Below are positions 938 to 61,049 of a stretch of 64,000 bases of DNA, one piece after another. The DNA is from an uncultured virus (IMG/VR IMGVR_UViG_3300042502_001806) (Duplodnaviria; Heunggongvirae; Uroviricota; Caudoviricetes), in the IMG/VR virus record IMGVR_UViG_3300042502_001806; one strand, written 5' to 3'. Made by a program: the position numbers and the translations under genes. The notes beneath the pieces were generated by a model, which searched no databases, was not told the origin of the DNA, and was given only the letters and a program-made list of their open reading frames with translations. Position 1 is the stretch's first letter. Each line of letters begins with the position of its first letter.

Positions 938-969
938 TTTGGTAGATTAAAAACAAATACATATCTTTG
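938..969 (+). promoter_or_regulatory. Bacteroidota-type promoter driving the leader/tRNA array
   Basis: TTTG 938-941, 20-nt spacer, TATCTTTG 962-969. Confidence 0.75.
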
Positions 970-1027: not shown

Positions 1028-1123
1028 ATGAAAACAATTAACGTAAATATCGCACAAGTTAACCCGCAACCTCAGGATCAGGATTCTAAGGAAGTGACTA
1101 ACTATGTCTTTACAATAAGTTAA
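1028..1123 (+). CDS. Putative attenuator leader peptide (31 aa, MKTINVNIAQVNPQPQDQDSKEVTNYVFTIS)
   Basis: ATG 1028 to TAA 1123; Pro/Gln/Asp cluster at 1064-1084; GACTAACT 1096-1103 is complementary to the terminator 5' arm. Confidence 0.7.
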   Translation: MKTINVNIAQVNPQPQDQDSKEVTNYVFTIS

Positions 1124-1147: not shown

Positions 1148-1180
1148 AACCCAGTTAGTCTTTGATTAACTGGGTTTTTT
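1148..1180 (+). terminator. Intrinsic terminator (attenuator) before the Pro/Asp tRNA array
   Basis: AACCCAGTTAGTC-ttt-GATTAACTGGGTT 13-bp stem (one G-U) followed by a T run. Confidence 0.85.
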
Positions 1181-1195
1181 GTTTTAAGTAAAAAA

Positions 1196-1269
1196 CGGGT
1201 AGTGACTAAGGTTTTAAGCACGGGTGTTCTGGAGACATCAGTTAGTCGGTTCGATTCCGACCTACCCGA
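1196..1269 (+). tRNA. tRNA-Pro(TGG)-like, atypical (C33, A37, weak D-arm)
   Basis: Acceptor CGGGTAG/CTACCCG with A73; T-arm GTCGG-TTCGATT-CCGAC; anticodon stem GGTGT/ACATC with loop TCTGGAG. Confidence 0.65.
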
Positions 1270-1331
1270 CACGAAGTATAATTGGACAGAAACGTACTCT
1301 TTCGAGAATAGAGTAAAAGAATTCTCAAAAA

Positions 1332-1419
1332 CTAGTTGTGTAGGCAATTGGCAGCCGACCTGATTTGGATTCAGGAATGAACATAAAGTTCTATGTGGGT
1401 TCGAGTCCCATCAACTAGA
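1332..1419 (+). tRNA. tRNA-Pro(TGG) with long variable arm, atypical
   Basis: Acceptor CTAGTTG/CAACTAG with A73; anticodon stem CCTGA/TCAGG, loop TTTGGAT; 19-nt variable region; T-arm GTGGG-TTCGAGT-CCCAT. Confidence 0.7.
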
Positions 1420-1428
1420 CAAAAATAC

Positions 1429-1501
1429 GGATGTGAGGTCAAACGGTTAAGATGTCTGCCTGTCACGCAGTTCGGAGCGGGTTCAACTCCCGTCACGTCC
1501 G
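1429..1501 (+). tRNA. tRNA-Asp(GTC)
   Basis: Acceptor GGATGTG/CACGTCC with G73; loop CTGTCAC; T-arm GCGGG-TTCAACT-CCCGT. Confidence 0.85.
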
Positions 1502-1507
1502 CAAATT

Positions 1508-1579
1508 GGTCCTGTAGTTAAACGGCTATAATGTCGCCCTGTCACGGCGAAGTTCGGAGTTCGATTCTCCGTGGGACCG
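1508..1579 (+). tRNA. tRNA-Asp(GTC)
   Basis: Acceptor GGTCCTG/TGGGACC with G73; stem TCGCC/GGCGA, loop CTGTCAC; T-loop TTCGATT. Confidence 0.9.
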
Positions 1580-1634
1580 CTAACAGAAAGGTTGTTAACA
1601 CCGCTACCTGAAAATAAAAGAAAGTTAACAAAAT

Positions 1635-1706
1635 GGTCTTGTCGTCCAATGGTAGGATAACCCGTTGTCTGCGGGATGGTTGCGGGTTCGAATCCCGTCA
1701 GGACCG
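1635..1706 (+). tRNA. tRNA-Asp(GTC), atypical anticodon loop (U37)
   Basis: Acceptor GGTCTTG/CAGGACC with G73; CCCG-TTGTCTG-CGGG; T-arm GCGGG-TTCGAAT-CCCGT. Confidence 0.8.
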
Positions 1707-1715
1707 CTAAAACTA

Positions 1716-1788
1716 CGGGATGTAGTTCAGTTGATAGAACGCTCGGTTTGGGACCGAGAGGTCGCAGGTTTGAGTCCTGCCATCCCGA
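1716..1788 (+). tRNA. tRNA-Pro(TGG)
   Basis: Acceptor CGGGATG/CATCCCG with A73; CTCGG-TTTGGGA-CCGAG; canonical D-arm. Confidence 0.9.
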
Positions 1789-1819
1789 CAAAGAAATAAA
1801 ATATTAATAAATAGAAATT

Positions 1820-1870
1820 ATGAGAACAACAACACAATACCAGCAACAACAAATTAATCCAACGGATTGA
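1820..1870 (+). CDS. Putative Gln-sensing attenuator leader peptide (16 aa, MRTTTQYQQQQINPTD)
   Basis: ATG 1820 to TGA 1870; 5 Gln codons (CAA tac CAG CAA CAA CAA); stop codon lies in a segment complementary to the terminator 5' arm. Confidence 0.8.
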   Translation: MRTTTQYQQQQINPTD

Positions 1871-1898
1871 TAACGGTATCGTATTGTTTAAACTTTAC

Positions 1899-1932
1899 AA
1901 ACCCTATTCAATCTGATTGAGTAGGGTTTTTT
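1899..1932 (+). terminator. Intrinsic terminator (attenuator) before tRNA-Gln x2 and glnS
   Basis: AAACCCTATTCAA-tctga-TTGAGTAGGGTTT stem followed by a T run, ending 2 nt before tRNA-Gln. Confidence 0.85.
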
Positions 1933-1934
1933 AT

Positions 1935-2006
1935 TGCTCCATAGTATATGGGTGATCATATCTGTCTTTGAAACAGATGAGCTTGGTTCGAGTCCAAGTG
2001 GAGCAA
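1935..2006 (+). tRNA. tRNA-Gln(TTG)
   Basis: Acceptor TGCTCCA/TGGAGCA; TCTGT-CTTTGAA-ACAGA; T-arm CTTGG-TTCGAGT-CCAAG. Confidence 0.85.
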
Positions 2007-2012
2007 CAACAT

Positions 2013-2083
2013 TGTCTCGTAGTGTAACGGCAGCACAGAAGATTTTGACTCTTCTAGTCTAGGTTCGAATCCTAGCGAGACAA
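2013..2083 (+). tRNA. tRNA-Gln(TTG)
   Basis: Acceptor TGTCTCG/CGAGACA; GAAGA-TTTTGAC-TCTTC; T-arm CTAGG-TTCGAAT-CCTAG. Confidence 0.9.
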
Positions 2084-2101: not shown

Positions 2102-3706
2102 ATGAATTTCATTGAAGATAAAATACTAGAAAAAGGTAATCTTGATAAATTAACATTAAGATTTCCACCAGAACCAAATGGTTACTTACATATTGGTCAC
2201 GCTAAATCTATTATACTAAATTTTGGTTTAGCTGAAAAATATAATAGACCTTGTAACTTGAGATTTGATGATACAAATCCAACTACTGAAGATACACACT
2301 TTGTTGAATCAATTATAAAAGATATAGAATGGTTAGGCTACAAACCAGCCAATATTTTTTATACATCTGATTATTTTGATTTTCTTTATGATTGTGCTGT
2401 TACTTTAATTAAAAAAGGATTAGCTTATGTTGATGATTCAACATCTGAAGAAATTGCTTTAATGAAAGGAACTCCAACTTCAGTTGGTAAAGACTCACCT
2501 TATAAATCTAGAAGTATAGAAGAAAACTTAGACTTATTTAATAGAATGAGATTAGGTGAATTTGTTGAAGGTTCTAAAATATTGAGAGCCAACATTGATA
2601 TGACTTCTCCAAATATGATTTTAAGAGATCCGGTTCTTTATAGAATAATATCTAAGTCACATCACAAAACTGGTGATACTTGGAAGATTTATCCAATGTA
2701 TGACTTTGCTCATCCACTTTCTGATTATAAAGAAGGTATCACCGATTCTTTATGTACTTTAGAATTTGAGGTTCATAGACCTTTATATATGTGGGTATTA
2801 GAAAATTGTGATTTAGAAAATCCACTTTCAGAAGAAACTGAGTTTGCTCGTTTGAACATTGACTATACAGTTATGTCAAAAAGAAAATTAAAAAGATTAG
2901 TTGAAGAAGGATTTGTAGATGGTTGGGATGATCCAAGAATGCCAACTATTTCTGGTTTAAGAAGAAGAGGTTTTACGCCAAATGCTATTAAAGACTTTTG
3001 TGATAGAATTTCTGTTACTAGAAAAGAATCAGTTGTTTCTTATTTACTTTTAGAAGAATGTTTAAGAACTGATTTGAATGTAGTCACTAATAGATTAATG
3101 GGTGTTATGGATCCAGTTAAGTTAGTTATTACCAATTGGGATATGGGAACTGAAATGGTTGAAGTTGAAAACAATCCTGGTGATGAAAGTGCTGGTATGA
3201 GAATGATTCCTTTTAGTGGTGAACTATTTATTGAAAGAGAAGATTTTAGAGAAGAAGCTAATAACAAATTTCATAGATTGAAACTAGGTGGTGAAGTAAG
3301 ATTAAAAGGTGCTTATGTTATTATGGCTAACGAAGTTATCAAAGATGAATTTGGAGAAATCACTGAGATCAGATGTGCTTACGATCCTTTAACAAGATCA
3401 GGTATGACTTTTGAAAGAAAGATTAAAGGAACTATTCACTGGGTATCTGCTGAGCACGGAGTCAGAGTTGGTGTAAATGAATATGAAAGATTATTTAATG
3501 ATGAATCACCGGATAAAAATGAAGATGATTTTATCAATTACATCAACCCAGGTTCACTTATAATTAATGATAAGGCAATCTTTGAGCCTCACGTTTTAAA
3601 CGTCAAGGAGCCAGTTCAAATGATGAGAAAAGGGTATTATATTTTAGATACTGATGGTAAAAGTTTCAACAAAACTGTTAGTTTGAAAGAAGGGTGGGTA
3701 GGTTAA
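2102..3706 (+). CDS. glnS: Glutaminyl-tRNA synthetase
   Basis: RFPPEPNGYLHIGH (HIGH), VMSKRKL (KMSKS-like), YPMYDFAH, GWDDPRMPT, KGTIHWVS anticodon-binding barrel. Confidence 0.97.
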   Translation: MNFIEDKILEKGNLDKLTLRFPPEPNGYLHIGHAKSIILNFGLAEKYNRPCNLRFDDTNPTTEDTHFVESIIKDIEWLGYKPANIFYTSDYFDFLYDCAVTLIKKGLAYVDDSTSEEIALMKGTPTSVGKDSPYKSRSIEENLDLFNRMRLGEFVEGSKILRANIDMTSPNMILRDPVLYRIISKSHHKTGDTWKIYPMYDFAHPLSDYKEGITDSLCTLEFEVHRPLYMWVLENCDLENPLSEETEFARLNIDYTVMSKRKLKRLVEEGFVDGWDDPRMPTISGLRRRGFTPNAIKDFCDRISVTRKESVVSYLLLEECLRTDLNVVTNRLMGVMDPVKLVITNWDMGTEMVEVENNPGDESAGMRMIPFSGELFIEREDFREEANNKFHRLKLGGEVRLKGAYVIMANEVIKDEFGEITEIRCAYDPLTRSGMTFERKIKGTIHWVSAEHGVRVGVNEYERLFNDESPDKNEDDFINYINPGSLIINDKAIFEPHVLNVKEPVQMMRKGYYILDTDGKSFNKTVSLKEGWVG

Positions 3707-8262: not shown

Positions 8263-8868
8263 ATGGCGACTATAAAAAAGTTTAATCAATTTAATACATC
8301 TGAGTGGATAGGACCGTTGAAGGTTCTTGATATTAAAGAAAATACAGTTTATACAAACTTTGGTAACTTCTTCAATAAATCAGAAAATAAATTAACAGTA
8401 GGATATTCTTATATTTTAAGAGTTGTTAATAATGATATTGTTGATACAGGAATGTCTTGTGTCGATTTAGTTGTTCTTATTGATACAGGTACAAACTATA
8501 AAGTTCTTTCTATTAAAAGAGGTCGAGCACCATTTGTTGGTATGTGGGCTAATCCAGGAGGAAACATTGACGAGGGTGAACAACCTTTAGATGCCGCTTC
8601 TCGTGAGTTAGAAGAAGAAACAGGACTTATGATACCTAGTAAGTATTTTACTTATGTAGGTGCTTTTGATAAAGAGTTCAGAGATCCTCGTAATAAAAAT
8701 TGTGTTAGTCATGCTTTCGTTATTGTTTTAGATGAAATGCCAGTTGTTAAAGCTGGTGATGATGCTACAGAATGTACTTGGAATGATGTAAGTTATGATG
8801 GTGATGTAACCGTTGATATGGCATTTGACCACGCAGAAATAATTAAAAAATCAATTCAATCAATATGA
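8263..8868 (+). CDS. NUDIX hydrolase (ADP-ribose pyrophosphatase-like)
   Basis: Nudix box GGNIDEGEQPLDAASRELEEETG; RDPR, AGDDA, AFDHAEI. Confidence 0.92.
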   Translation: MATIKKFNQFNTSEWIGPLKVLDIKENTVYTNFGNFFNKSENKLTVGYSYILRVVNNDIVDTGMSCVDLVVLIDTGTNYKVLSIKRGRAPFVGMWANPGGNIDEGEQPLDAASRELEEETGLMIPSKYFTYVGAFDKEFRDPRNKNCVSHAFVIVLDEMPVVKAGDDATECTWNDVSYDGDVTVDMAFDHAEIIKKSIQSI

Positions 8869-9353
8869 GTATTAAAAACTTAAAAGAACCATTTGTTATT
8901 ATCCTTATCGGACCACCTCTATCTGGTAAATCAACTTGGATTAGAGAAAACTTTCCAACGACTGAAGTAATTAGTCGTGATGAAACTGTTATGGAAGTCT
9001 ATGGTTCAAGAAACTATACTGAGGCATTTAACAATGTAGACCAAAAAGAAGTAGATAGAGTTTTAACTCAAAAGTTTTTAGATGCTAATTTGGTTAAAAA
9101 GAATGTGATTGTTGACATGACACACATGGCTTCTAAGCGTAGAAAGCAAAATCTAAACTATTTCTCAGATGATTACTATAAGTTGGGTGTTATCTTTCCA
9201 ATTCTTTCAGATGATGAATATGTAAGACGTAATCAAAAAAGAATTGAAGAAGAAAATAAAGATCTTCCAATGAGAATTGTTAAGTCTATGATTTCTTCTT
9301 ACCAACCAATCACAACAGATGAAGGGTTTAACAAAGTAATTACATTAAAATAA
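8865..9353 (+). CDS. AAA_33 / polynucleotide-kinase-like P-loop kinase
   Basis: GPPLSGKST Walker A, ISRD, VIVDMT, RNQKR lid, EGF tail. Confidence 0.85.
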   Translation: MSIKNLKEPFVIILIGPPLSGKSTWIRENFPTTEVISRDETVMEVYGSRNYTEAFNNVDQKEVDRVLTQKFLDANLVKKNVIVDMTHMASKRRKQNLNYFSDDYYKLGVIFPILSDDEYVRRNQKRIEEENKDLPMRIVKSMISSYQPITTDEGFNKVITLK

Positions 9354-12131: not shown

Positions 12132-12545
12132 ATGAAAGTAAGTTTTGATTTTGACCACACGTTATCTAGAAAAGATGTTCAGGTATTTGCCAAACAATTG
12201 GTAGATGAAGGACACGAAGTTTGGATTGTTACCTCAAGATTTAGTGATGAAGCGGCAAAAGAAAAGAAGTGGCATTGGATAGAAGGACAAAATCAAAAAC
12301 TATTTGATGTTGCGGAAGAATGTGGTATTAAAAAAGAAAATATTCAATTCACTTGTATGGAATCTAAGTCTTACTTTTTAGAAGGCAAAGGATTTATATT
12401 TCATTTAGATGATGATGATATTGAATTGATGGATATTTTTGAGTCTAATAAATTTGACCAAAGTAAATGTTTCCCAGTTCATGTAGACCATTTTGAGTGG
12501 AAAGAAACTTGTCGAAATATTTTGAAGAAAAATTTGGCAGAATAA
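12132..12545 (+). CDS. HAD-superfamily phosphatase-like protein
   Basis: MKVSFDFDHTL (DxD), IVTSR, HLDD; start at 12132 after TATCTTTG. Confidence 0.8.
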   Translation: MKVSFDFDHTLSRKDVQVFAKQLVDEGHEVWIVTSRFSDEAAKEKKWHWIEGQNQKLFDVAEECGIKKENIQFTCMESKSYFLEGKGFIFHLDDDDIELMDIFESNKFDQSKCFPVHVDHFEWKETCRNILKKNLAE

Positions 12546-12564
12546 GAAATAAGTATTATCTTTG
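12533..12564 (+). promoter_or_regulatory. Bacteroidota-type promoter
   Basis: TTTG 12533-12536, 20-nt spacer, TATCTTTG 12557-12564. Confidence 0.75.
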
Positions 12565-12672
12565 TGTAACAAAAGAGATAAAAAAGATTAAAGATAACCT
12601 AAACGGTGAGGGACATTAAAAGTAAAGCACGAAGCTTGAGCCCAAATAGGAGGCGGTCACCGTCCGAAAAAT

Positions 12673-12759
12673 GAGGAAGTAACAAAGTGGTCAAATGTGG
12701 TTGTGTCGTAACACAGCTGGCTTTTAAGTCTTCGGAGGTTCGAATCCTACCCTTCCTCA
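12673..12759 (+). tRNA. tRNA-Tyr-like (GTA) with expanded anticodon loop and bulged T-stem; possibly a pseudo-tRNA
   Basis: Acceptor GAGGAAG/CTTCCTC with A73; long variable arm; GGTTCGAATCC; GTTGT-GTCGTAAC-ACAGC 8-nt loop. Confidence 0.65.
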
Positions 12760-12809
12760 CAAAATTTGCGGTTTTTTACAACTTTTAAAAATCACAAAGT
12801 ATAACCTAT

Positions 12810-13049
12810 AGAGTTTTCGTAGTGGTTGACTCTTAATTCTCCTAACGGAGGGGTCTGTTTTTACAGGGTGGATACCAAACTCCACGCAAAGTTTTCGTAG
12901 TGGTTAACTAACCCTTTAACTAGGGGGTCTGTCTTGAACAGTGTGGGTACCAAAACCCACTCTACTTAAAAAGAGTTTTCGTAGTGGTTAACTCTTAATT
13001 CCTCTTAACAGAGGGGTCTACTCCAAGTAGGGTGGGTACTGAACCCCAC
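12810..13049 (+). ncRNA. Three tandem copies of a 70-80-nt four-hairpin structured RNA motif
   Basis: Copies at 12810-12885, 12890-12960 and 12971-13049; invariant GTTTTCGTAGTGGTT with compensatory stem changes. Confidence 0.75.
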
Positions 13050-13067
13050 ACTAAACACATTTCATTA

Positions 13068-13166
13068 ATGAATTCAGAAATCTACGCGGCTATTGCCACA
13101 CCTGTAGTTCTATTGTCTACTCTAGCAATAGTAATCTACAAGGAGAAGAAAAAAATGAGAAAATAG
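13068..13166 (+). CDS. Small membrane peptide (32 aa, MNSEIYAAIATPVVLLSTLAIVIYKEKKKMRK)
   Basis: One hydrophobic helix plus a basic tail, lying between the RNA repeats and a terminator. Confidence 0.55.
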   Translation: MNSEIYAAIATPVVLLSTLAIVIYKEKKKMRK

Positions 13167-13176
13167 AGAAAATTCG

Positions 13177-13205
13177 ATCCTATCAAAATGATAGGATTTT
13201 TTTTT
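13177..13205 (+). terminator. Intrinsic terminator
   Basis: ATCCTATCA-aaa-TGATAGGAT followed by a T run. Confidence 0.8.
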
Positions 13206-13271
13206 GATATTTAATAAAAAAATCATATCTTTGCTGCTATAAAAAATATAATCTAAAACATATTTATATTA

Positions 13272-13760
13272 ATGAAATTAGAAATTGAACGCAAATTTTT
13301 ACTAAAAGCTATGCCTGACATATCTCCAACCGAGATTGTTAAAATTGATCAGTATTATTTTAAAAACTCAAGTGGTACTTGGGAAAGAGCCAGATCTTGG
13401 GATTCTAATATCAAGGGTAAATCGTATATTCATACTGTAAAGAAAAGCGTTTCAAAAGGTGTCAACCTTGAAGATGAAAAATTTCTAAGTGAAAAAGAAT
13501 TCAAAGAGTTCAAATCGCATTGTTTATTATCTACAACCGAGTCTAGATTCATAACTAAAGAAAGATGGATTTATCCCGATGGTAATCTATACTGGGAAGT
13601 AGATATGTTTAATAGTGGTCACCATCTTATTGTGGCTGAAATTGAAATTCCTACAAAAAATCATAAAGTAAACATTCCTAAGTTTATAGAAGATAAACTT
13701 TTACTTGAAGTAACAGGATTAAAACAATTTAGTAATAGAAACCTTTCTAATAAAATATAA
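13272..13760 (+). CDS. CYTH domain protein (triphosphate tunnel metalloenzyme)
   Basis: EIERKFL, KER, WEVDMF, VAEIE, EVTG...SN. Confidence 0.9.
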   Translation: MKLEIERKFLLKAMPDISPTEIVKIDQYYFKNSSGTWERARSWDSNIKGKSYIHTVKKSVSKGVNLEDEKFLSEKEFKEFKSHCLLSTTESRFITKERWIYPDGNLYWEVDMFNSGHHLIVAEIEIPTKNHKVNIPKFIEDKLLLEVTGLKQFSNRNLSNKI

Positions 13761-46980: not shown

Positions 46981-48069
46981 ATGAGTAATTTTAAAGTATC
47001 TAAAGAAAGAATCGAGCTCTTCGTTCACCCAAACGCAGAAGCTCTCGAACTAGGTAAGGTTGGTTCATACCAAGTAGTAGTTCAAAAAGGTCTTTATGTG
47101 ACCGGAGACGAGGTAATCTTCGCACCTGAAAAATCTGTTCTAACCGGACAGCTTAAAGCAGAGTATGAAAAATACCTTTCTGGTCCTGATAAAGACAGGG
47201 TAAAGGCTGTTCGTCTTAGAAATGAAATCTCTTCTGGGATTATCATTCCTAAGCATTTAGTTCCAAACTTTGAAAGCTACACGGTTGGTGTAGATATTTC
47301 TGAAGACTTGGGTATCACTAAATACGAACCACCAATTCCAGTTCACTTGGCTGGAAGTGTGACACGATTTGAAATGCCACACATTGGAAATCACGACTGT
47401 GAACATGCGAATGTTTATGTCAATGATTTAGTACCAAGTGAAAGAGTTGTTATCACTGAGAAAGTACACGGGTCTCAATTCATCTTAGCACATGAGATTG
47501 AAACTGAGAAAACGATTGTAAGTTCTAAAGGTATGTTAAAAGCTGGATTGTCTCTACAAGATGAAGAAGGAAACACATACTGGATGGCATCTAAAAATGA
47601 TAACATTGTTGGTAAGATTAGAAATAGTTTTACAGAAGGTGTTGTTCAAGTGTTTGGTGAGGTTATTCCTGTTCAAAAAGGATATAACTATGGACAAACA
47701 AATCCAACCGCAAGGTTGTTTGATGTTAGGGTAAATGGTAAATCTATCCCTTACGATATGGTATCCAATGAATTGAGAGAGTTGTGGGTGCCAATCATTT
47801 ACGATGGTACTCTTAACTTAGAATCTAAAGAAGTAGTTCTTTACGAAGATGAGTCAAGAGGAATCCGTAAGACAAGAGTTGACTTCATCCTTCCAAAAGA
47901 TGTCGTAGAACTTTGTAAGGGAAAAGAGTTAGTGTCTGGTAAAGAATTACATATCCGTGAAGGTGTTGTACTTCGTCCTTACATTGACCGTGATGCTAGA
48001 GATGGTACTAAACTTAGGTTGAAAATCATCAACCCGGCATACAAAGAAACCGGGGAAGAAATTAACTAA
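46981..48069 (+). CDS. ATP-dependent RNA ligase, DRB0094/Rnl5 family
   Basis: N-terminal OB domain HPNAEALE...VVVQKG, RLRNEISxG, TEKVHGS, FGE, REGVV, LKIIN. Confidence 0.9.
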   Translation: MSNFKVSKERIELFVHPNAEALELGKVGSYQVVVQKGLYVTGDEVIFAPEKSVLTGQLKAEYEKYLSGPDKDRVKAVRLRNEISSGIIIPKHLVPNFESYTVGVDISEDLGITKYEPPIPVHLAGSVTRFEMPHIGNHDCEHANVYVNDLVPSERVVITEKVHGSQFILAHEIETEKTIVSSKGMLKAGLSLQDEEGNTYWMASKNDNIVGKIRNSFTEGVVQVFGEVIPVQKGYNYGQTNPTARLFDVRVNGKSIPYDMVSNELRELWVPIIYDGTLNLESKEVVLYEDESRGIRKTRVDFILPKDVVELCKGKELVSGKELHIREGVVLRPYIDRDARDGTKLRLKIINPAYKETGEEIN

Positions 48070-60407: not shown

Positions 60408-61049
60408 ATGAGTAAGTACAACAGAACATATCATTTACCGTGGTCACCTGGTTCTACCAATGACGATAGGATATCAAACGGAGTTGAATCTCTGTTAGGT
60501 ATTGATATTGTTATTACCGAGAAATTAGATGGTGAAAACTGTGGAATGACAGATGATGGTGTTTATGCCAGAAGTCATGCGGCATTCACTACATCACCTT
60601 GGTCAAGAGAGGTTAGACAACTACATAAACTTTCAGTTGAAGACGAGTTAGGTGATGGTGTTTATCTTTTTGGTGAAAATATGGAAGGCATTCATTCAAT
60701 TGAATATACTAACCTAACATCTTATTTTTATATCTTTGGAGTTAGAGATAATAACATCTGGATTCCTTGGGATAAAGTTGAAGAATATTCTTATCTTTTA
60801 GATATACCAACTGTACCTGTTTTATTTAAGGGTGTAGTTAATACTGAAAAAGAATTAAAAGACCTTGTTATGAGCTTAGTAAGCAAACCATCACAACTGG
60901 GTGGTCAAATAGAAGGCATAGTTGTTAGAAATGCTTCGTTATTTCACAATGACGACTTTGTTGATAATGTAATGAAGTGGGTTAGAAAAGGTCATGTTCA
61001 AACTGATGAACATTGGACTCGTAACTGGGTTAAAGCAAAAATTAATTAA
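60408..61049 (+). CDS. RNA ligase (Rnl2-like adenylation domain)
   Basis: KYxRTxHLPWS, TEKLDGEN, ARS, FGEN, EGIVVR, KWVRxxH. Confidence 0.88.
   Translation: MSKYNRTYHLPWSPGSTNDDRISNGVESLLGIDIVITEKLDGENCGMTDDGVYARSHAAFTTSPWSREVRQLHKLSVEDELGDGVYLFGENMEGIHSIEYTNLTSYFYIFGVRDNNIWIPWDKVEEYSYLLDIPTVPVLFKGVVNTEKELKDLVMSLVSKPSQLGGQIEGIVVRNASLFHNDDFVDNVMKWVRKGHVQTDEHWTRNWVKAKIN

Follow-up and report, generated by a model that had tools for sequence, protein, structure and literature searches.

Eight tRNA genes near the start of an uncultured phage genome carry the Pro(UGG), Asp(GUC) and Gln(UUG) anticodons on unrelated tRNA bodies. This block and its odd bases are real and not an artefact, and the surprising parts of it are cassette-like bodies, predicted gating and a rewired tRNA-Pro. 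The most likely interpretation is an on-demand tRNA supply in which unrelated bodies would give both dose and a hedge against tRNA-targeting defences. We give about even chances to the full form of this interpretation, in which unrelated bodies with the same anticodon are swapped as cassettes behind attenuators and differences between the bodies probably shield some copies from such defences.

The tRNA block and its setting

The window, meaning the whole stretch of DNA that was analysed, comprises the initial 64 kb of a virus record 117 kb long (30% GC), and its genes include those for gp32, a head-tail adaptor, an RNA ligase and a chaperone. The stretch was found in lake-water DNA runs (14 rows with at least half of its words). 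Its glutaminyl-tRNA synthetase (GlnRS) is 72-78% identical to those of the uncultured phages LR745206 and LR756502 (635-642 kb), described as freshwater and subsurface megaphages in PMC9723777. The order of Pro/Asp block, Gln block and GlnRS gene (Table 1), the leaders and the atypical tRNA-Pro are all present in both of these phages. The layout is not universal, since the relative G004 has a GlnRS gene with a single tRNA match. In L005 (4760-5587) and L008 (3303-4136), an inserted ORF of ~275 aa separates the Pro/Asp block from the Gln block, and class II synthetase domains lie directly 3' of tRNA blocks in G003 (322271, 393086, 413686 and 422380) and G001 (220628).

Bacteroidota taxa were named in the titles of 79 of the best 80 bacterial GlnRS loci, the remaining one being an uncultured bacterium. 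The motif TTTG-N20-TAnnTTTG, which we take to be the Bacteroidota-type promoter consensus, matched the window 11 times compared to 4.1±2.1 times in shuffles, and a sigma-70 promoter scan gave 4 matches with 3.7 expected. The GlnRS type and the promoter motif together suggest that the host belongs to the Bacteroidota. As stand-ins for the host, we used 20 of the Bacteroidota genomes with the best GlnRS loci.

All eight tRNA genes lie on the plus strand within 1196-2083. ARAGORN called seven of them by default and Pro 1196 (genes are named here by their first position) at a relaxed score only; low-score intron and permuted tmRNA calls were set aside as noise. In a scan of the window with RF00005 (cut-off 29 bits), the same number passed, at 30.9-69.5 bits; Pro 1196 was absent from the gathering scan and reached 29.2 bits in a local scan. 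The anticodon loops written down in the first-pass annotation are borne out: UC-UGG-AG, UU-UGG-AU and UU-UGG-GA in Pro 1196, 1332 and 1716, CU-GUC-AC in Asp 1429 and 1508, UU-GUC-UG in Asp 1635 and the two Gln loops given in Table 1. The odd bases that it listed are likewise present: C33 (1229), A37 in two tRNA-Pro genes (1233 and 1369), U37 in Asp 1635 and A8 in Asp 1429. In all eight genes the isotype identity bases (Pro C1-G72 and A73, Asp G73, Gln U1-A72 and A73) equal those of host-like genes.

As also stated there, none of the eight encodes CCA, C74 alone being encoded in all of them. This absence was rejected as an oddity because only 4 of 28 host-like Bacteroidota genes encode CCA and 24 likewise lack it; among phage genes 19 of 365 encode it. 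A8 was not retained as a special feature: 60 of 365 ARAGORN calls have a base other than U8, some of them through register errors.

Relatives of the phage have tRNAs with a CUA (amber) anticodon outside the gated blocks (G002 370132, G003 121630 and G026 151233) and A34 anticodons, namely AGG on the atypical Pro body and AAG in seven tRNA-Leu genes. A gene at L004 5594-5679, assigned to Ser by ARAGORN, resembles a tRNA-Pro(UGG) whose D-loop carries an inserted hairpin.

Table 1. Features of the tRNA region, the wider contig and related phages. Positions are those of the window unless another sequence is named.
Feature	Position	Strand	Remarks
Bacteroidota-type promoter-like motif	938..969	+	one of 11 window matches
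Leader ORF 1, 31 codons	1028..1123	+	Gln/Pro/Asp-rich codons 10-19; homologous leaders before relatives' Pro/Asp blocks
Predicted antiterminator segment in leader 1	1095..1104	+	complementary to 5' arm of terminator 1
Terminator-like hairpin 1, U tail	1148..1184	+	z -5.6
Atypical tRNA-Pro(UGG)	1196..1269	+	C33 and A37; anticodon stem predicted to be extended, D-stem of 2-3 bp, variable loop of 2 nt
tRNA-Pro(UGG), long variable arm	1332..1419	+	37-38 polymorphic (AU, GA, GG); gene missing in some strains
tRNA-Asp(GUC), host-like loop, A8	1429..1501	+	identical in L014 and LR745206
tRNA-Asp(GUC), host-like loop	1508..1579	+	ARAGORN
tRNA-Asp(GUC), U32 and U37	1635..1706	+	L004 copy 96% identical, loop unchanged
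tRNA-Pro(UGG), host-like loop	1716..1788	+	69.5 bits with RF00005
Leader ORF 2, 16 codons	1820..1870	+	five Gln codons, four consecutive; conserved before Gln blocks
Predicted antiterminator segment, end of leader 2	1863..1870	+	folding
Terminator-like hairpin 2, U tail	1899..1934	+	z -6.5
tRNA-Gln(UUG), loop CU-UUG-AA	1935..2006	+	gene missing in some strains
tRNA-Gln(UUG), loop UU-UUG-AC	2013..2083	+	ARAGORN
Glutaminyl-tRNA synthetase	2102..3706	+	TIGR00440 glnS 656 bits, cut-off 426; directly 3' of Gln block
RNA repair/maturation genes	window 8865-9353, 46981-48069, 60408-61049; genome 66751-68088, 112094-113724
Shared short words	1090-1101, 1152-1160 and 1198-1209, 1240-1252		repeat comparison
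A34 anticodons in relatives	L014 3290; L263 1196; L264 1196; G001, G003, G005, G026-G029
tRNA-like bodies without 7-nt anticodon loop	L001 5244-5315; L006 3649-3720; L263 1118-1191

Unrelated bodies and their exchange between relatives

That the same anticodon sits on unrelated bodies, as the first-pass annotation had it, holds for the window, where identity between such genes is 0.48-0.57 for Pro, 0.62-0.66 for Asp and 0.58 for Gln. The comparison was extended to 26 loci with Pro, Asp or Gln genes; besides the window, these were phage loci linked to GlnRS and a single region of G005, and this set omits four duplicate loci, loci without tRNAs and bacterial-type hits. When grouped at 82% identity, 31 Pro genes fell into 14 body families, 42 Asp genes into 24 and 55 Gln genes into 24. 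Identity was at least 82% in 1 of 97 pairs within loci compared to 143 of 2714 pairs between loci. We also analysed the tRNA regions of nine near-complete genomes, four reached via GlnRS and five via the atypical tRNA-Pro, which contained 365 well-formed tRNA genes and 163 same-anticodon pairs within genomes. Only two of these pairs had at least 82% identity, and the mean was 0.586, compared to 0.607 for same-anticodon pairs between genomes. Host-like tRNAs are alike across genomes (0.84 for Pro and 0.90 for Asp), and host copies are identical, as in the four Asp genes of L276. The best identity of phage to host-like tRNAs was 0.56-0.76, and all bodies of the window tRNAs differ from those of the stand-in genomes. 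From the pairwise comparison of bodies, tandem duplication was rejected as the origin of the copies.

The nearest relatives, with GlnRS identities of 95-96%, have one and three of the window's eight bodies, and one of the two relatives with an identical Asp 1429, L014, has a GlnRS of 82% identity. Contigs from four lake DNA runs skip exactly one gene, corresponding to 1326-1422 (Pro 1332) in three of the four runs and to 1932-2011 (Gln 1935) in the other, and these whole-gene skips fall at short shared junctions. In the lake contigs, Pro 1196 has paired anticodon-stem changes, with C33 and A37 unchanged among the differences listed, and Pro 1332 occurs with G37 alleles. Overall, tRNA bodies turn over faster than the flanking leader and GlnRS. 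The tRNA genes are gained, lost and exchanged between relatives as whole cassettes.

Leaders and terminators predict gating of the tRNA blocks

The attenuators to which the first-pass annotation referred are real in sequence terms. Among the terminator-headed tRNA blocks of the nine genomes, 35 of 37 have a leader ORF, a count that covers neither scattered single genes nor clusters in which no terminator was detected. The leaders contain 0.97 of the amino acids of their block compared to 0.68 when leaders are shuffled within genomes (p<5e-5), the wrong ORF having been taken as leader in one G002 block. For example, a Lys run precedes five tRNA-Lys genes and a Tyr/Glu run precedes Tyr/Glu genes. 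A leader rich in cognate codons and an intrinsic terminator between leader and genes are thus both in place; the remaining hallmark of an attenuator, an exclusive antiterminator freed by a stalled ribosome, is a computational prediction.

In leader 1, the predicted antiterminator duplex (-10.6 kcal/mol, second among 36 arms) forms in folding when codons 13-19 are masked and is lost at codon 24 or later. In leader 2, the duplex (-10.3 kcal/mol, second among 37) forms with codons 8-11 masked and is lost at codon 16. Across the 37 units, pairing of the leader with its own terminator arm averaged -12.0 kcal/mol compared to -9.05 kcal/mol after permutation, with eight units ranking ninth or worse among the arms. 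In both window units, folding of the complete RNA invariably gives the terminator, which would make the switch a kinetic one. No promoter motif occurs in the 30 nt before leader 2, suggesting that this leader would act as a second gate in series, and such an arrangement would explain the Gln codons in leader 1. L005 and L014 have a leader of the first type with a different terminator stem and with the antiterminator partner word kept in the loop. Parts of the block are covered by contigs of relatives from RNA libraries, which as contigs are not evidence of transcription. In the titles and abstract openings of mostly open-access literature, we found no tRNA-gene attenuators, phage isodecoder panels or fold like that of the atypical tRNA-Pro.

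An atypical tRNA-Pro family with compensatory changes

Homologues of Pro 1196 were collected via GlnRS neighbourhoods, a D-arm pattern, an independent 3'-side pattern, BLAST and a covariance model, and form a family of 31 distinct phage sequences. The family was modelled with an anticodon stem prolonged by columns 25-47, 26-46 and 27-45, the D-stem consisting of 9-24, 11-23 and 12-22. In the alignment, 96.9% of cells are paired and 17 of 23 pairs have changed on both sides, with compensatory changes in the acceptor, anticodon and T stems. Columns 26-46 pair in all 31 sequences (CG 24, UA 5, AU 1, GU 1) with seven double changes, and columns 25-47 pair in all 31 with one double change; the layer 27-45 is non-standard in 21 members, and 12-22 shows one UA-to-CG switch. 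Invariance of the D-arm is partly built in, as 10 members came from the D-arm pattern. A canonical 4-bp D-stem register pairs in 7.3% of cells, and the family departs from the canonical architecture of a 3-4 bp D-stem, a 5-bp anticodon stem and a 4-5 nt variable loop. In ordinary tRNA-Pro recovered with the same 3' pattern, positions 25-47, 26-46 and 27-45 are mostly unpaired. The compensatory changes support a model in which the anticodon stem is extended by two pairs at the expense of the D-stem.

The anticodon is UGG in 29 members and AGG in two, and no others occur; G35-G36 and A73 are invariant, and C33 is present in 20 of 31. Position 37 is A in 30 members, U in one and never G; eight members were found by a pattern requiring A37, so that the unbiased count of A37 is 22 of 23. 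Family members scored 82-100 bits with the covariance model and other tRNAs at most 51, and the best score in 151 Bacteroidota genomes was 46 bits (32 candidates scored per genome). Decay of Pro 1196 is excluded by the compensatory changes in the three stems and, with the Pro anticodon kept throughout the 31 sequences, so is a pseudogene. The earlier view that the atypical copies are not decaying pseudogenes therefore stands for the C33/A37 tRNA-Pro family, and purifying selection acts on the oddest copy of the block. According to abstracts, m1G37 is needed by bacterial tRNA-Pro; the atypical tRNA-Pro has no G37 and cannot take this modification. No TrmD-family domain was found in five phage genomes, and A37 in tRNA-Pro is not treated in the part of bioRxiv 10.1101/2022.05.14.491930 that was covered. 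The atypical gene shares short words with the antiterminator segment of leader 1 and the terminator arm (Table 1), probably by chance.

A model of on-demand tRNA supply

We propose that a shortage of charged tRNA-Pro, tRNA-Asp or tRNA-Gln would stall a ribosome in a leader and so release a panel of replacement tRNAs. According to folding, a stall on the Gln, Pro or Asp codons of leader 1 would free its antiterminator segment to pair with the terminator arm, and transcription would then enter the six Pro/Asp genes. Leader 2 would open the two tRNA-Gln genes and GlnRS only when Gln codons also stall. CCA would be completed by a host enzyme or by the contig's nucleotidyltransferase. Copy number would supply dose, and unrelated bodies may protect against recombinational collapse and also distribute the risk across nucleases and modifying toxins whose recognition includes stems and distal parts in addition to loops.

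The contig has an RNA repair and maturation set consisting of a kinase-like protein, three RNA-ligase-like proteins, a nucleotidyltransferase and a 2H phosphoesterase (Table 1). The nucleotidyltransferase (genome 112094-113263), a candidate class II CCA-adding enzyme, matched the tRNA nucleotidyltransferase PHROG 2244 (E=3e-59), with the CCA and PcnB models both below cut-off. A role in counter-defence is suggested by the fast turnover of bodies, convergent U37, these RNA repair genes and the precedent of AriB discussed below, and resistance of the phage tRNAs to host nucleases is a candidate role. The enrichment of pyrimidine-37 in tRNA-Asp and the avoidance of the commonest host-like loop by tRNA-Gln(UUG), both described below, also speak for a defence context. 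More tentatively, and with rather less than even confidence, we suggest that these megaphages draw on a variable tRNA repertoire: dozens of non-homologous bodies per anticodon, pooled among the phages, would be shuffled gene by gene into amino-acid-specific operons with codon-matched attenuators, including a working rewired tRNA-Pro without G37, so that the phage would sense which host tRNA was destroyed and release structurally different replacements.

Dose, anticodon loops and non-decoding copies

A supply of dose without any defence is the alternative that survives best, although we regard it as rather unlikely. Here the attenuators would answer amino-acid starvation or heavy demand, additional copies would yield more tRNA, and the bodies would be unrelated only through recombinational loss of identical 75-nt neighbours and the old neutral diversity of the pool. 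More copies are present for amino acids in heavier use (Spearman 0.67, p=0.001, with counts from four relatives set against this contig's proteins), and synthetases share tRNA blocks, as GlnRS does here; copy number and synthetases behind matching blocks both fit a plain shortage of charged tRNA. The rarity of near-identical copies within genomes and loci, the whole-gene skips at short shared junctions and within-genome identities close to those between genomes, as in random draws from a diverse pool, also agree with dose. In addition, a host tRNA-Tyr under a strong promoter rescued as well as the phage tRNA (PMC11555353), suggesting that dose alone can defeat a nuclease. However, dose leaves unexplained the repeated occurrence of U37 among Asp bodies that are unrelated (7 of 42 genes, six body families), the three alleles at 37-38 of one Pro body, the rewired Pro fold kept across distant phages and the turnover of bodies ahead of the flanking leader and GlnRS.

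The first-pass annotation held that the anticodon loops themselves are a hedge against anticodon nucleases, and escape by loop mutation has been proposed (PMC10264068); we consider this improbable. The Pro loop of the stand-in genomes was UU-UGG-GA in 17 of 17 fully listed genomes (by eye) and in 7 of 7 extracted genes, and the Asp loop was CU-GUC-AC in 20 of 20 genomes and 10 of 10 extracted genes; the Gln loop was mostly UU-UUG-GU (7 of 11 genes), with G37 in 10 of 11. Of the eight window tRNAs, three (Pro 1716, Asp 1429 and Asp 1508) carry a host-like loop; the other five differ from it, in keeping with a hedge by loops. Among loci with several copies, a host-like loop occurs alongside another one in 9 of 11 for Pro and 12 of 14 for Asp, which is likewise in keeping with such a hedge. 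Only 3 of 55 phage tRNA-Gln(UUG) genes have the commonest host-like loop, which the other 52 avoid. Pyrimidine-37 (U or C) is enriched in phage tRNA-Asp (4 of 20 compared to 5 of 345 other genes, p=7e-4), and this part of the claim that loops are deliberately diverse stood.

Special diversification of the loops did not. Among the 163 same-anticodon pairs of the nine genomes, 83 differed in the loop compared to 74.6±4.4 after shuffling genome labels (p about 0.03), a weak excess counted with a filter that demanded Y32/U33 and so left out other odd loops. For Pro, 14 of 17 pairs differed (p=0.037), for Asp 22 of 39 (p=0.12) and for Gln 30 of 41 (p=0.18); the genomes are related and not independent, so the permutation p-values, here and for the leaders, overstate independence. 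tRNA-Lys(UUU) is the classic target of anticodon nucleases, and a single loop was present in 21 of 21 such phage genes, on up to four bodies per genome, as it was in 15 of 16 tRNA-Asn and 9 of 9 tRNA-Gly(UCC) genes. In 151 pairs of close homologues, positions 32, 37 and 38 differed in 9%, acceptor stems in 19% and anticodon stems in 18%; hypervariability of the loops was thus not seen. Certain tRNA families require t6A or i6A at position 37, and the variety of loops is concentrated in families without this requirement. Conservation of odd bases in relatives was found for the Pro 1196 family; A37 of Pro 1332 was rejected as a fixed trait, as other alleles carry G37, and appears to be a strain variant. 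Collectively, these comparisons suggest that body diversity is the general feature and that the emphasis on loops was overstated.

That the atypical copies do not decode, being either decaying genes or decoys that bind tRNA-targeting enzymes, is very improbable: the borderline RF00005 score of Pro 1196, its scarce canonical D-stem pairs, the frequency of C33 and tRNA-like bodies without a 7-nt anticodon loop in relatives' blocks would agree with it, but the compensatory changes exclude decay for the Pro family, and invariant G35-G36 and A73 and an anticodon that varies between two Pro anticodons only also argue against it.

The tRNA-like bodies just mentioned lie inside Asp/Pro blocks of relatives (Table 1), have G73 and an intact T-arm and are possible decoys; similar unassigned bodies are present in other blocks. 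In the window, a non-coding stretch at 12533-13053 lies 3' of a Bacteroidota-type promoter motif. It includes a tRNA-like RNA with a long arm and no 7-nt anticodon loop (12673-12760), followed by three repeated multi-hairpin units of ~80 nt, and Rfam gave no match at 12500-13300.

Comparison with known systems and significance

trpL, hisL, thrL, ilvL and pheM of pheST are ribosome-mediated transcription attenuators. Like trpL-type attenuators, the units in the window combine a short ORF with runs of cognate codons, a U-tailed terminator and a predicted overlapping antiterminator. In contrast, what would be controlled here are a phage's tRNA genes, along with a synthetase; almost all of the tRNA set is divided among matched operons, and there are two gates in series. 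The Anabaena trn operon of 26 genes is under one protein repressor, TrcR (PMC10272220). The block would resemble it as a reserve of tRNA genes that stays silent until translation is under stress; here, a codon-specific RNA switch is predicted for each block instead.

Huge phages have up to 67 tRNAs that differ from their hosts' tRNAs, synthetases, a CCA-adding enzyme and tRNA ligation genes (PMC7162821); together with LR745206 and LR756502 they are the same kind of phage with the same gene inventory. The string 'attenuat' does not occur in the main text of PMC7162821, and same-anticodon copies and the atypical fold are not treated in the parts of PMC7162821 and PMC9723777 that were covered. 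T5 tRNA-Lys escapes PARIS AriB by anticodon-stem changes and distal contacts (PMC12409363), and T5/SP15 tRNA-Tyr acts against retron Eco7 (PMC11555353). Like these nuclease-evading tRNAs (T5 Lys(UUU) and Tyr), those of the window differ from host-like tRNAs and could replace depleted species. Unlike them, they comprise several unrelated bodies per anticodon, swapped as cassettes behind predicted attenuators.

tRNA-Pyl and type I mitochondrial tRNA-Ser(UCN) have a 6-bp anticodon stem and a 3-nt variable loop (PMC7609411), and the atypical tRNA-Pro shares with them an elongated anticodon stem, a short connector and a short variable loop. It differs from both in having 5 bp, a mostly G-A layer and two further pairs that covary, in a variable loop of 2 nt and in its canonical T-loop and standard amino acid. 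It lacks the 6-bp stem and 3-nt loop and, according to our model, works by a similar trade without being a member of the group. The words 'phage' and 'tRNAPro' do not occur in the review (PMC7609411).

It has long been asked whether phages carry tRNAs for dose, codon use or counter-defence. Unrelated bodies with the same anticodon, together with alleles that differ in the anticodon arm only, are a ready panel for finding the parts of a tRNA on which escape depends, and the leaders would serve to report the loss of tRNA for a particular amino acid. Standard annotation almost entirely overlooks the atypical tRNA-Pro; if this tRNA decodes, it would represent a natural case outside organelles of a tRNA whose core is rearranged and in which m1G37 is impossible.
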